A model generated the notes under the pieces. That model worked only from the letters and a program-made list of their open reading frames with translations. It made no database searches and was not told the origin of the DNA. Shown piece by piece: positions 1,693 to 5,868 of a stretch of 64,000 nt of DNA (within the stretch, counting starts at the first letter, position 1; each line of letters starts with the position of its first letter). Both the position numbers and the translations under genes were made by a program. Source of the DNA: Terriglobia bacterium (GTDB lineage: Bacteria; Acidobacteriota; Terriglobia; JAJPHL01; JAPKYU01); contig CBDCVK010000009.1 of the NCBI GenBank assembly GCA_965223005.1, positions 1 to 64,000 on the forward strand, in the 5' to 3' direction.

Positions 1693-1828
1693 CAGTGGAA
1701 TCGGGAGGATACAAGCTGGCCAGTGGAACCGGGCCAGTGGAATCGGGCCAGTGGAATCGGGCCAGTGGAATCGGGCCAGTGGAATCGGGCCAGTGGAATC
1801 GGGAGGATACAAGGAGGATACAAGCTGG
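1693..1828. repeat. 14-bp tandem repeat CAGTGGAATCGGGC (6 tandem units 1721-1803 plus one at 1693) with duplicated GGAGGATACAA(G) flanks
   Basis: Directly visible; no unique spacers. Confidence 0.95.
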
Positions 1829-2002
1829 AAGCCACCTGGGCAGTCTGCCGGTTCCCAGGCGCCCGGTAAACTGGCGAAACCAAACCAGACCTGCCCAGAT
1901 ACCTGCACAGGCAACCAAGTCCGTGGCAGAGCAGCAGCCTGTGCCAGCTGGCCGGTTGCGGGAAGCGCTTGGCGTTAGTCCCCGTGTCATAATCTGAACC
2001 GT

Positions 2003-3283
2003 ATGCTCTGGGCGGTGGGGCTGCTGGTGCTATTACAAAGTGTGCGTTCGCTGCTGAATGCGCGGCGCTGGCTATCCTTCATCCATCGCTACAAACAGGG
2101 TCGCGACAGACAGGGTGCAGGCTCCCCGTTGCGCGAAACAGGTCATGCAGATGCTGCCGCAAGCGGCGCTCCCCATTCCCGGCTCCCCGCTCAAGATGAC
2201 ACCCCACCGCTCAGCCTGATTGTGCCCTGCCGAGGATACGAGCCGGGACTGGAGGAGAACCTGGCCGCCTACCGCCAGCAGGATTATCCCGACTACGAGC
2301 TAATCTTTACCACCTCGGGACCGGAGGATCGGGCATCGGCGACTGCCAGCGCCATCCATGGCGCCCGGCTCATCTACGCCGCACCTCAGTTGGATGAAGG
2401 GGAAAAGGTAACGAGGCTGCGCGCGGCGGTGCGGCAGGTACGCCCGTCCAGCCGGGTGCTGGTGTTTGCCGATTCGGACGGTCGGCCTGACCCCAGGTGG
2501 CTCCGCGAACTGGTGCGGCCCTTGGCGCGACCCGAACAGGAAGTGGGCGCGACCACCAGCTACCGCTGGTACCTGCCTCCCCGCAGTGCCCTCGGCCGGA
2601 GCCTGCCTTCGATTTTCCGAGCCGTGTGGAATTCCTTTATCGCTTCGGTGTTGGGCGATCACAGCCGGAACTTTTGTTGGGGCGGCGGGACAGCGGTGCG
2701 CCGCGAAACCTTCACTCGCCTGAACGTGGACCGTTACTGGCGCGGCTCGGTAAGCGACGACTACCGCCTCACGACCGCGTTGCGGGAGGCCGGCCTGTCC
2801 ATCCGGTTTGTGCCCACCTGCCTCGTCCCCACACACGGCGACTGCGAGTGGGGTGAGCTATTCTCCTGGACGACGCGGCAGATCATCATCACGCGGGTTT
2901 ACGCCCCCAGGCTGTGGCAACTGGGCCTGGCATCCAACGGCCTCTATTGCGCTGCAGTGGCGACGCTGCTTTGGGCATCGTCCTCACCGCCAGCCCTCGC
3001 GCTGCTGGCGGCGATCGGGCTAGTGGGTATGGCCACCGGCGCTGCCCGCGTCGCCGGGGCCAGTGCCGCAATGCCGGACCACCTGGACGAAATCCGACGC
3101 ATGCGCTGGGCTTTCATTCTGCTGGCGCCGCTGATACCGCTGCTGATGTTTTACAACTTCACCCGCGCGGGGTTCACCCGCACCATCGCCTGGCGGGGCA
3201 CGCGCTACCGGCTCGGCGGGCCGCAACAGACGGCTGTGCTTCACCGGGCACCTTCCCCGGACTCTGAATTCCTGTTCCTGTAA
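2003..3283 (+). CDS. GT2/GT21 glycosyltransferase (ceramide glucosyltransferase/HpnI-like)
   Basis: IVPCRG, FADSD (DxD), SDDY, WTTRQ motifs, C-terminal TM helices and WRG-x-x-Y end. Confidence 0.85.
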   Translation: MLWAVGLLVLLQSVRSLLNARRWLSFIHRYKQGRDRQGAGSPLRETGHADAAASGAPHSRLPAQDDTPPLSLIVPCRGYEPGLEENLAAYRQQDYPDYELIFTTSGPEDRASATASAIHGARLIYAAPQLDEGEKVTRLRAAVRQVRPSSRVLVFADSDGRPDPRWLRELVRPLARPEQEVGATTSYRWYLPPRSALGRSLPSIFRAVWNSFIASVLGDHSRNFCWGGGTAVRRETFTRLNVDRYWRGSVSDDYRLTTALREAGLSIRFVPTCLVPTHGDCEWGELFSWTTRQIIITRVYAPRLWQLGLASNGLYCAAVATLLWASSSPPALALLAAIGLVGMATGAARVAGASAAMPDHLDEIRRMRWAFILLAPLIPLLMFYNFTRAGFTRTIAWRGTRYRLGGPQQTAVLHRAPSPDSEFLFL

Positions 3284-3311
3284 CCCGGGACCGAGGGTAA
3301 ACTGACTGAAT

Positions 3312-3926
3312 ATGCGCTCAAAGTTCAGCTTAGCCAGTTTTTTTGTGACGTTCCTGCTGAATTGTGTTGCTCTTGCCATGGCAGCTCCCCTTGCCCTCGG
3401 CGCTGCCGTCGGGGAACGTGACCTACCACCGGCCGACCTGGACCGGGTCCGGGAGGGTAGCCTGGCTCCGGATTTCACCCTCCAAGACCAGGCCGGCGAA
3501 CTGGTGACGCTTTCCAGCTTTCGGGGGAAGAAAAAAGTTGTGCTTGTGTTTTACCGCGGCTACTGGTGAGGCTACTGCATGAAGCAGCTTGGAGAGCTGC
3601 GCGATCTGTTGAGTGAAAGTGGGCGCCAGGAAGTGGAACTCCTGGCGGTGAGTTCCGATCCGCCGGACAAGCTGCGGACGATGATTGAGCGTATACGGGC
3701 CAAGTCACCCGGCGCGGTGACTTACCGGTTGCTGTCGGACGCCGACCACCGGGTGATTGACCGCTACGGCTTGCGCAATGAAGCCGCCGCCGCCAAGGGC
3801 CGCTTCATTCCCCATCCCACCACCTACGTGCTGGATAAACAGGGCAAAGTGGTATGGCGCTTCACCGAAGTGAATTTCAGGGTGCGCCCATCGAACGAGG
3901 CGATCCGCCAGGCGCTGCAAAAATAG
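3312..3926 (+). CDS. Exported AhpC/TSA peroxiredoxin-like selenoprotein (UxxC; in-frame TGA 3567-3569 = Sec), 204 aa
   Basis: ORFs 3312-3569 and 3579-3926 share a frame; joined they read APDFTL...VVLVFYRGYW-U-GYC-MKQL...AVSSD...HPTTYVLDKQGKV; TGA sits at the first Cys of the CxxC; signal-peptide-like N-terminus. Confidence 0.9.
3584..3600 (+). promoter_or_regulatory. Putative bacterial SECIS hairpin
   Basis: GCAGCT-TGGAG-AGCTGC perfect 6-bp stem starting 14 nt after the UGA, G-containing apical loop. Confidence 0.7.
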
Positions 3927-4023
3927 ACGGTGGTCGGCTCTGAGGTTCCGGCGCTAGGTGCCCGGCTGGCACTGGGCATTGTGCGCCAATGGAAGGCCTC
4001 CTCTGGAATGGCTCTGCGGTGGA

Positions 4024-4635
4024 TTAGTCCAGAGGGGCGCGATTGGCGTCCAGTATTTCCTGGACCATCGAAGAGAATTGTAAAACCTGGATGGGCTTGT
4101 ACAGGTAGGGGCAGCCTGTACTCTTTAGGAACTCGCGGGTCTCCGGGCCGGTGTCTCCAGTGATAAAAATAATCTGGCGCTTGCTACCCAGCGCCTGCTC
4201 TTCAACGAAGCGGAATACTTGCTTGCCGTCCAGGCCGGGCATGTGGATGTCGCAAATCACAAGAGAGTACTGTTGCTCAACCAGTTTTTGCAGCCCTTCC
4301 TTCCCGTTGCTGGCGACCTCCAGCGTGCAGTCCTCTGCTTCGAGTATCTTGCGTAGGAGGATGGGCGTCAGGTCGTCGTCGTCAATGATCAGGATGCGGT
4401 CGTGAGGGCGCGGGGCAGCGGGCTGGGTGACCCCGACCTCGGGCTCCACTTCGGACGGCGGGGGAGATCCCTTCCAATCCAATAATTCCCACTCGGTCAA
4501 GCCCACGCAATAGTTGCAGTTGCGCTTGGGTAGCTGATTTTGCCTGAGGGCCAGCACCTCGTCCGAGAGAAGCTTGTGCACCACACGGGAGCCGCAGTAG
4601 CGGCAGCGCATCGAGGCTTCGTACAGGATCATCAT
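4024..4635 (-). CDS. Response regulator receiver protein with N-terminal CxxC...CxxC zinc-ribbon-like domain
   Basis: CRYC...CNYC, Pro-rich linker, receiver motifs ILIIDDD, CDIHMPGLDG, FITG, YKP. Confidence 0.85.
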   Translation of the reverse strand: MMILYEASMRCRYCGSRVVHKLLSDEVLALRQNQLPKRNCNYCVGLTEWELLDWKGSPPPSEVEPEVGVTQPAAPRPHDRILIIDDDDLTPILLRKILEAEDCTLEVASNGKEGLQKLVEQQYSLVICDIHMPGLDGKQVFRFVEEQALGSKRQIIFITGDTGPETREFLKSTGCPYLYKPIQVLQFSSMVQEILDANRAPLD

Positions 4636-4767
4636 GGCCGTTGCACCCCGTGGGGAGCGTGCTCCAGACAACTATAGGCTCTTCCGGAGGGCTCGGTCAA
4701 TGTTCGGAGGCCCTTCCGGCCGCCCCGGCGTCGTCAGCCTCGGAGGAAGCCGGGAAGTCCACTCTTC

Positions 4768-5868
4768 CTAGAGGTTCAACTCTGCGGGCCGAACGGGTTG
4801 GTGAAGTTCTTGCGAGCGGCGCACAGCGAAGGCCAGCCGCAAACTGTTGAGATTGTCCCGCCCTGAGGTGGCCGGCTCCGAGCCCGTGGCGATAGCTTCC
4901 ATCAGCGACAGCATCGGCCCGGCAAAGGCGTCCGGCATCCACTTGTCCTGGAATCCGACATCCAGCCAGCAAGAGGGTAAGTACTGCCGGGTGATAAAAG
5001 AGAACTCGTCGGTGCGGCCGTGGGGATACCCGTAGTGGATGCCGAAGTTTCCTTTGGCCACGCCTTCGCTCCCCTCCACGCGAAACCGGGCATAAGTGTC
5101 ACCGGCATGGTTATTGTGGTTGGTACGGTGCAGCAGCTGCAGCCCGCCGGGGTACTCCAGCAAGGTGTTGGTCCGCGTTTCCCCCTTCAAGGCCTGTCCC
5201 GGCCATTTCCCGCAAATGGAGTAGACCCACTCGGGCTCCCCGTAGAGAAAGCGGCTCACGTCATAAAAATGGATCGAATAGTAGAGCACGTCGAAGGGAT
5301 CAACTTCCAAAACCCAACCGCCCAGACCTTCCCAAAGGTTGATCTCAAACTCGGTACGGAGCGGCTCTCCGAGCCAGCCCCGGCGTATCAATTCCTTGAC
5401 CGCCCGCATCGAGGGCGTCCAACGCATCTGTTGGTTGACGGCAACCTTCAGCCCCCGGGCCTCGGCCAGCTCAACCACTTTGCGCGCATCCCTGTACCGT
5501 ACGGCAAAGGGTTTTTGGCAGAGCAGGTGCCGGCCTGCTTCCAGAGCCTGGCAGGCAATTTCCGGCTGGAACTCCGCCGGCACGGCGATGTCCACGATCT
5601 GTACGCTGTCGTCGGAGAGCAGAGCCGAAAGGTCAGGATAGACCTTGGGCACCTGGAACTCCTTGGCCACGGCCTTTGCCTGCTCCTGGTCAATATCGGT
5701 AATTCCGACGACTCTCAAGTTCCAGTTGCGGTAGACCGGCAGGTGGGCGTAGCGCGCGATCTTGCTTGCACCCACAATAGCGATGCCGTAGTCGGCGCGA
5801 GGTTTCGCGCCCATGGTGCCGGCCAAATCTAGATCTATATTTTCTGATTCTCGCTTTTCCCTATCCAT
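4768..5868 (-). CDS. Gfo/Idh/MocA family oxidoreductase
   Basis: IAIVGASKIA, HLLCQKP, NQQMRW, YSIHFYD motifs. Confidence 0.9.
   Translation of the reverse strand: MDREKRESENIDLDLAGTMGAKPRADYGIAIVGASKIARYAHLPVYRNWNLRVVGITDIDQEQAKAVAKEFQVPKVYPDLSALLSDDSVQIVDIAVPAEFQPEIACQALEAGRHLLCQKPFAVRYRDARKVVELAEARGLKVAVNQQMRWTPSMRAVKELIRRGWLGEPLRTEFEINLWEGLGGWVLEVDPFDVLYYSIHFYDVSRFLYGEPEWVYSICGKWPGQALKGETRTNTLLEYPGGLQLLHRTNHNNHAGDTYARFRVEGSEGVAKGNFGIHYGYPHGRTDEFSFITRQYLPSCWLDVGFQDKWMPDAFAGPMLSLMEAIATGSEPATSGRDNLNSLRLAFAVRRSQELHQPVRPAELNL

Follow-up and report, generated by a model that had tools for sequence, protein, structure and literature searches.

A UGA-interrupted redoxin gene of a Terriglobia bacterium predicted to encode an exported selenoprotein of the peroxiredoxin-like UxxC family

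Introduction

The genome of a Terriglobia bacterium (GenBank assembly GCA_965223005.1) contains, on contig CBDCVK010000009.1, two open reading frames (ORFs) that lie in the same frame and are split solely by TGA-GGC-TAC-TGC. They occupy positions 3312–3569 (85 amino acids) and 3579–3926 (115 amino acids) of the stretch of DNA analysed here, which comprises positions 1 to 64,000 of the forward strand of the contig and is called the window below. Does the TGA at 3567–3569 terminate a small gene, or is it read as selenocysteine (Sec, written U in protein sequences), making the two ORFs one gene? A preliminary description of the locus had proposed a hidden, exported, peroxiredoxin-like selenoprotein with the motif FYRGYW-U-GY-C; the split and the motif were both found where it had placed them.

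The analysis led us to conclude that 3312–3926 very probably encodes one selenoprotein of 204 residues, an exported redoxin of the AhpC/TSA fold with a thioredoxin-type WUxxC site that acts as a thiol:disulfide oxidoreductase. The selenoprotein call is strongly supported, being as secure as sequence analysis permits, while Sec insertion itself, export, the substrate and the electron donor are what we infer from it.

Results

Reading frame and conservation of the TGA

The reading frame is closed 5' of the gene by a TGA at 3303–3305, so the ATG at 3312 is the earliest possible start. With its single internal TGA read as U, the frame runs on to a TAG and yields 204 residues, the length that had been proposed. 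The read-through translation around Sec is ...KKKVVLVFYRGYW-U-GY-C-MKQLGELRDLL..., with the motif ...VVLVFYRGYW-U-GY-C-MKQLGEL.... The Pfam AhpC-TSA domain (PF00578) matched residues 49–182 with E = 2.6e-32 (111.8 bits, cut-off 26) and crosses the TGA. In orthologues and database homologues, the sequence flanking the TGA on either side was conserved in one frame.

Orthologues with one TGA at the same position were found in seven genomes among 40 relatives (E <= 3.8e-47). The TGA was kept in both same-genus genomes that have the orthologue (G001, 97% identity; G003, 86%), in two genomes from another family of the order (62% and 61%) and in three from another family of the class (46–47%). It was also retained in other families down to about 35% identity. 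Read-through motifs of the orthologues were of the form FYRGYW-U-[GSP]-x-C or VYRGHW-U-G-x-C. Among the 40 relatives, a close orthologue was found neither in a third genome of the genus (62% complete) nor in three genomes of the same family, and the distribution of the orthologue is patchy.

A wider scan, with each species represented by a single genome, returned at least 577 related loci, the best 80 of which were kept. Of these 80, 78 had the TGA at the corresponding codon and two had Cys instead. The 78 comprise 77 loci recognised by motif match and one (L091) that the motif missed, which has the TGA form FYRGWW-U-PYC. According to their record labels, the loci belong to Gemmatimonadota, Longimicrobiales, Blastocatellia and other Acidobacteriota, Bryobacterales, Binatia, Rokubacteria, delta-proteobacteria and others. 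Of 201 genomes sampled at order level around a genome with the Cys form, 15 had an orthologue (E <= 1e-35), ten with the TGA and five without it. The earlier expectation that an alignment to homologues would place Cys or Sec at the UGA was borne out for both residues. Full-length database homologues (~200 amino acids) with YW-C-PYC are common, their Cys being aligned to U86, and Cys-form loci were aligned at the same position (L112, L129, L130–L133). The opposite case, relatives with TGC or TGT and only this strain with TGA, is contradicted by the TGA of same-genus and distant genomes, though Cys forms exist.

The TGA is spanned by contigs from four public runs, each belonging to a different study; two of the runs carry a metatranscriptomic label, and for the other two no kind is stated. 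Strain differences were many on both sides of the codon, and none of the 40 listed of 62 fell in 3558–3611. A base error at the TGA is thus not indicated by these contigs. The 54 nucleotides (nt) of this interval hold the UxxC motif and the hairpin described below, with differences frequent elsewhere along the gene.

A SECIS-type hairpin with covarying stem

The GCAGCT/AGCTGC stem with a TGGAG loop that the preliminary description had noted 14 nt past the TGA was present. In RNA letters the hairpin is GCAGCUU/GGA/GAGCUGC, or alternatively a 6-bp stem with the loop UGGAG. The published model of the bacterial selenocysteine insertion sequence (SECIS) has a loop of 3–9 nt, an upper stem of 4–16 bp, a G in the first two loop positions, a UGA–loop spacing of 16–37 nt and a minimum free energy of <= -7.5 kcal/mol (PMC13188914, available in part). 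The hairpin lies within all of these ranges, with a loop of 3 nt, a stem of 7 bp, the G present, a spacing of 21 nt and -9.9 kcal/mol. Folded alone it had z = -2.63, with 6 of 200 shuffles as stable.

We consider that the weight of the hairpin as evidence comes from covariation across orthologues. The alignment used for this was gapless and covered 54 nt from the TGA in 85 Sec-form loci, namely L024–L031 and the TGA forms of L050–L128 except L091; the more distant L032–L038, whose hairpins are partly shifted, were left out. In the stem columns (18–24 with 28–34), 93.2% of 588 cells held standard pairs, compared to 85.1% in shuffles, and sliding the partner by 1–3 columns reduced standard pairs to 25–49%. 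Two-sided changes were seen in four of the seven stem pairs. Compensatory cells numbered 50, where shuffles averaged 15.4, and none of 500 shuffles matched the covariation score. Pair 21–31 is G-C in 77 loci and A-U in seven, by way of two synonymous substitutions, CAG>CAA and CUG>UUG. Pair 18–34 is U-A in 40 loci and G-C in 27, coupling the third position of one codon to the first of another that lies six codons later. Several of the stem changes thus do not appear explicable by protein coding alone. Each of the 85 Sec forms has G as its first loop base. All seven positions were paired in 52 of them, six in 26 and five in seven.

The Cys-form loci served as a small control (n = 6), in which 4, 4, 5, 5, 6 and 6 of the seven positions were paired. 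The peptide that they encode, Q-L-x-[EG]-[LM], resembles that of the Sec forms. The loop did not start with G in five of the six, which have Lys or Gln codons (AAG, AAA, CAG) there.

Selenocysteine machinery and genetic code

The preliminary description implied that Sec machinery would be encoded elsewhere in the genome. A search of the genome to which the window belongs (10 contigs, 3.24 Mb) recovered tRNA-Sec, selA, selB and selD, all exceeding their curated cut-offs. The tRNA-Sec scored 78.5 bits against Rfam RF01852, was called tRNA-SeC with anticodon tca by ARAGORN, and lies on another contig than the window (G000:C10:520416-520506); within the window, ARAGORN found no tRNA. Neither selA (551 bits) nor selB (341 bits) has internal stops. 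The selD gene (357 bits; locus L018, G000:C10:916629-917552) has one in-frame TGA, indicating that selenophosphate synthetase (SelD) is probably another selenoprotein of this organism. TGA terminates 11 of the 37 ORFs of >=300 amino acids in the window and is otherwise an ordinary stop here.

Fold, active site and location

Among solved structures, the best sequence match was AhpE, the 1-Cys peroxiredoxin of M. tuberculosis (E = 2.7e-16), followed by BCP/PrxQ proteins and ResA. The AlphaFold2 model had a mean predicted local distance difference test score of 84.6, with residues 1–33 unstructured and of low confidence. It places U86 after the strand 75–81 and directly before the helix 87–96. 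Its structural matches were AhpE (TM score 0.87, normalised to the target; root-mean-square deviation 1.9) and ResA (TM score 0.82–0.85).

Pro, Thr and Arg are the defining residues of the catalytic site of peroxiredoxins (Prx). In the HMMER alignment to AhpE, U86 takes the place of the Thr of PxxxTxxC and R82 that of its Pro, so that only the Cys is kept, as C89 at the peroxidatic position. The catalytic Arg of AhpE (R116) stands opposite P169, an assignment of moderate confidence that comes from one pairwise alignment beside a 5-residue gap. P167 and P169 are nearly invariant in the homologue alignment, as part of an I-P-H-P motif, and the role proposed for P169 is that of the cis-Pro of thioredoxin folds. 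The active site is best read as a thioredoxin-type W-U-x-x-C with a facing proline on a peroxiredoxin-like scaffold. The peroxiredoxin-like UxxC protein proposed earlier thus needs a refinement: with Sec at the Thr position and C89 at that of the peroxidatic Cys, its site is thioredoxin-like and not that of a standard peroxidase.

At the N-terminus, R2 and K4 precede a hydrophobic run free of charges, F5–V33, with 11-residue Kyte–Doolittle means of 1.66–2.32 for segments starting at residues 5–24. By hydropathy, the resemblance to a signal peptide that had been noted before was therefore present, and homologues have comparable hydrophobic N-termini. These features suggest that the protein is exported or anchored in the membrane by its N-terminus, its catalytic domain lying outside. 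A lipoprotein processed at L-L-N-C18 was rejected as a candidate: Asn is a poor fit to position -1 of the lipobox, and the position of the Cys is not conserved in homologues. The features of the gene are compiled in Table 1.

Table 1. Predicted features of the selenoprotein gene, in coordinates of the window
Feature	Position	Strand	Evidence
Predicted complete selenoprotein coding sequence, 204 residues and TAG, AhpC/TSA (redoxin) fold	3312..3926	+	Read-through translation, Pfam, orthologue conservation, AlphaFold2
Putative export signal or signal-anchor at the N-terminus, residues 1–33; possible signal-peptidase site after A22-M23-A24	3312..3410	+	Hydropathy, low-confidence N-terminus of the model, homologues
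Predicted redox motif W85-U86-G87-Y88-C89 (thioredoxin-type WUxxC)	3564..3578	+	Translation, HMMER alignment to AhpE, model
Predicted Sec codon UGA, residue U86	3567..3569	+	In-frame TGA; TGA or Cys at related loci; Cys in full-length homologues
Putative bacterial SECIS hairpin, 7-bp stem (six Watson–Crick pairs and one U-G), apical loop GGA, UGA–loop spacing 21 nt	3584..3600	+	Folding, covariation, bacterial SECIS criteria
Codon of P169 in the I-P-H-P motif, candidate cis-Pro of the thioredoxin-type site	3816..3818	+	Homologue columns, AhpE alignment
True stop TAG	3924..3926	+	Frame and translation

Counter-evidence and alternative explanations

Several observations weigh against reading the locus as an exported Sec-dependent thiol:disulfide oxidoreductase. 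The metatranscriptome runs were present as contigs only, which are no proof of transcription. No Shine–Dalgarno-like sequence stands at the usual distance before the ATG at 3312; a GAGGG lies ~14 nt upstream. Folding energy alone is weak evidence for the hairpin because the 66 nt surrounding it do not fold more stably than shuffled sequence (z = +0.55, 143 of 200 shuffles as stable). Part of the self-complementarity of the stem stems from the conserved peptide Q-L-x-[EK]-L, and the six Cys forms still pair at 4–6 of seven positions. Rfam at gathering thresholds had no match anywhere in the window, a null result that carries no weight against a family-specific bacterial SECIS. The uncharged N-terminal run is long (~29 residues) and, judged by hydropathy, may be a membrane anchor and not a cleaved signal. 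The retained Cys at the peroxidatic position leaves room for peroxidase chemistry. Lastly, a survey of neighbouring genes pointed to no partner or pathway: the commonest Pfam family downstream (GCV_T) accounted for 7 of 75 ORFs, and the highest tally upstream was 4 of 75. This survey took the nearest ORFs of >=90 amino acids around loci L050–L129 (75 upstream and 75 downstream), which are crude greedy picks and may include false ORFs.

Peroxidase chemistry is the basis of the alternative that survives best, in which the protein is a true selenoprotein but works as an envelope peroxidase, a Sec/Cys variant of the peroxiredoxins. We regard this as rather unlikely. Sec is generally a good peroxide-reactive residue, the closest sequence and structure matches are the 1-Cys AhpE and BCP/PrxQ proteins, AhpC-TSA is the strongest Pfam match, C89 occupies the position of the peroxidatic Cys, and thiol peroxidase is the top NCBIfam match, though with 67.5 bits against a cut-off of 140. 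However, the Pro, Thr and Arg of peroxiredoxins are all replaced, and W-U-x-x-C and the I-P-H-P loop resemble the ResA/TlpA-type oxidoreductases, which were also matched. The literature, in the part available, likewise sets the UxxC Prx-like family apart from the TxxU Sec-peroxiredoxins (PMC1088965).

That the TGA is a real stop, leaving a nonsense pseudogene or two small genes of 85 and 115 amino acids, is very improbable. Public gene calls do list the halves separately, and the ATG at 3579 could start the second one, but a TGA at the identical codon in nearly all of the best related loci, across several phyla, is no repeated accident. The halves are moreover conserved in frame and make up one AhpC/TSA domain only jointly, the second half alone being without the active site, and the stop reading is further opposed by the covarying hairpin 3' of the TGA and the complete Sec machinery.

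An assembly or sequencing error for TGC or TGT, which a single base change would produce and which the existence of Cys-form homologues might suggest, is hardly credible given the same TGA in two other genomes of the genus and the absence of differences around the codon among the 40 listed of 62 in contigs of four runs. Equally far-fetched is a reading of the TGA as Trp or Cys through an altered code or near-cognate suppression, without Sec: three homologues (P0006, P0008, P0013) do have Trp at the position, though most likely through gene calling with TGA=Trp, whereas TGA ends long ORFs in the window, a complete Sec pathway is encoded, the SECIS-type hairpin is conserved, and the other non-TGA homologues carry Cys, the usual partner of Sec, and not Trp.

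Proposed mechanism

For the Sec-dependent oxidoreductase that we favour, the following course of events is proposed. The selA, selB, selC and selD genes would supply the Sec pathway, and the hairpin within the coding sequence would recruit SelB with Sec-tRNA(Sec), by which the UGA would be decoded as Sec. The N-terminal signal peptide or anchor would then put the catalytic domain outside the cytoplasmic membrane. There, U86 would act as the attacking nucleophile and form a transient selenenylsulfide with C89, enabling the protein to reduce disulfides of the cell envelope, or perhaps its sulfenic acids or peroxides. Its re-reduction would probably be carried out by a membrane electron carrier of the CcdA/DsbD type, which is present in the genome.

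Relationship to known families

The UxxC family has been recorded several times. A table of the GOS paper contains the entry "Prx-like 1, pfam00578, UxxC" (PMC2398784), a 2006 survey reports a "Prx-like thiol:disulfide oxidoreductase" in Geobacter, Syntrophus and Desulfotalea (PMC1794560), and a 2026 review places the Prx-like family under "predicted with high confidence" (PMC13188914); each of these sources was available in part. The gene has the PF00578 domain as well as the UxxC motif by which Prx-like 1 is defined, and the family was matched by this description. The two also share a thioredoxin-like character of the UxxC site, Cys homologues and a SECIS directly downstream of the UGA. They differ in the N-terminal export or anchor segment of the gene's clade, and in origin: the available parts of the papers list marine metagenomes and delta-proteobacteria, whereas mainly soil-type phyla, judged by record labels, were found here. 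On these comparisons the gene is classed as an unannotated new member of an already predicted selenoprotein family. The selenoprotein was therefore hidden, as had been claimed, in the sense of genome annotation; it is not of a new kind. The terms "signal peptide" and "periplasm" do not occur in the available parts of PMC2398784 and PMC13188914. Literature listings showed nothing specific on exported Sec redoxins or on the family in Acidobacteria or Gemmatimonadetes, which does not prove that such members are unpublished; supplementary lists may include close relatives.

Three other systems were compared. AhpE (PDB 1xvw, 4x1u) is the best match in sequence and structure, with C89 at its peroxidatic Cys. 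It has P...T..C and a catalytic Arg where the gene has R82, U86 and P169, and it is a cytoplasmic protein without Sec. Proteins of the ResA/TlpA/CcmG type (PDB 1st9, 1su9) share the thioredoxin fold, at the TM scores given above and with sequence E values of 1.5e-8 to 1.6e-9, and have a W-C-x-x-C-type site behind an N-terminal membrane or export segment; the gene has WUxxC behind a putative segment of this kind, recognised by hydropathy. In contrast to these proteins, Sec replaces the first Cys, the gene is not beside genes for cytochrome c biogenesis or CcdA, and its scores stay far below the NCBIfam cut-offs (ResA, NF002854, 51.2 vs 170 bits; TlpA, NF047696, 29 vs 230 bits). PrxU, the TxxU Sec-peroxiredoxin (NF040737), belongs to the same Pfam family and is also a selenoprotein, and the genome has one (L044). 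In PrxU, however, Sec replaces the peroxidatic Cys (T-G-G-U), whereas in the gene studied the Cys is retained and Sec precedes it by three residues; against NF040737 the protein scored 35.7 bits, the cut-off being 270.

A bolder possibility, which we put forward tentatively and consider doubtful, is that the gene represents a distinct and not separately described clade of UxxC Prx-like proteins. Such a clade would be exported or anchored, have its own SECIS in the Q-L-[GV]-[EKQ]-L peptide, be overwhelmingly of the Sec form, as were 78 of the 80 best loci, and be routinely split in annotation. Judged by record labels, it would live in lineages of soil and sediment, among them Acidobacteriota, Gemmatimonadota, Binatia and Rokubacteria.

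Genomic context and other redoxin genes

The gene begins 28 nt past a gene of the GT2 family of glycosyltransferases (2003–3283) on the same strand, and a response-regulator gene (4024–4671) follows downstream on the opposite strand. The sizes of the flanking ORFs recur in both same-genus genomes. A scan of 1800–4800 for promoters and terminators found no promoter-like site 5' of the gene. It returned a terminator-like hairpin at 4035–4051, the number of sites in this region being within shuffle expectation.

Genes for CcdA/DsbD or cytochrome c maturation were not adjacent to the gene, nor among the leading Pfam tallies of the 75 + 75 flanking ORFs. The sole DsbD_TM/CcdA-type gene of the genome (61.1 bits) lies away from the locus, and it is a conjecture that it serves as the transmembrane electron supplier of the selenoprotein. 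A Cys-type redoxin gene stands directly beside this DsbD_TM/CcdA-type gene (loci L046 and L134, G000:C10:998567-999840), the usual envelope-reducing pairing.

Further AhpC/TSA genes with a TGA were observed. The TxxU gene L044 (G000:C10:523863-524306), a second AhpC/TSA selenoprotein gene, encodes F-T-G-G-U-T-K-E with Sec at the peroxidatic position, lies ~3.4 kb from the tRNA-Sec gene, and recurs in G001 and G003 with one TGA each. A third TGA-containing paralogue, L048 (G000:C10:1378591-1378860), encodes VVLFYRGHW-U-PF-C with no obvious N-terminal hydrophobic segment and is probably a cytoplasmic UxxC Prx-like selenoprotein. In genomes of the same class (G007–G040), many AhpC/TSA-like matches were interrupted by a single in-frame TGA, and a genome often had several such matches. 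The lineage seems unusually rich in Sec-containing redoxins, the TGA position having been verified for a subset of the loci.

Annotation status

The preliminary description foresaw that pipelines would split the gene, and in the public protein collection its 85- and 115-amino-acid halves are indeed entered as separate proteins. Close relatives (65–97% identity) are present in the protein database only as C-terminal pieces of 114–117 amino acids. NCBIfam gave 13 weak matches, none at its cut-off, the best being thiol peroxidase, followed by ResA, with the scores given above. The BSepDB paper, in its available part, states that selenoprotein genes are often truncated or missed in databases (PMC13326102).

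The three JGI homologues in which Trp takes the place of Sec (YWWLYC, YWWPYC and HWWPYC) probably reflect translation of TGA with a TGA=Trp table, which would be a second kind of mis-annotation in the family.

Implications

In place of one selenoenzyme of 204 amino acids, the annotation of this genome holds two fragments. The same mis-splitting is likely across the many related genomes, as the curated NCBIfam models all stay below their cut-offs for this protein.

The genome appears to use Sec in several thiol-redox proteins: the product of the 3312–3926 gene, a second UxxC paralogue, a TxxU peroxiredoxin and SelD. With its clear SECIS and abundant Cys homologues, the gene is a reasonable candidate for a first experimental verification of the family and for asking what role a Sec redoxin of the envelope would have. 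Among the closest relatives, in several phyla, the Sec form dominates the clade of the gene. If this clade is indeed as outlined above, many soil bacteria would need selenium for the redox upkeep of their cell envelope, and the protein would be a selenoprotein that is active outside the cytoplasm without being a metalloenzyme.

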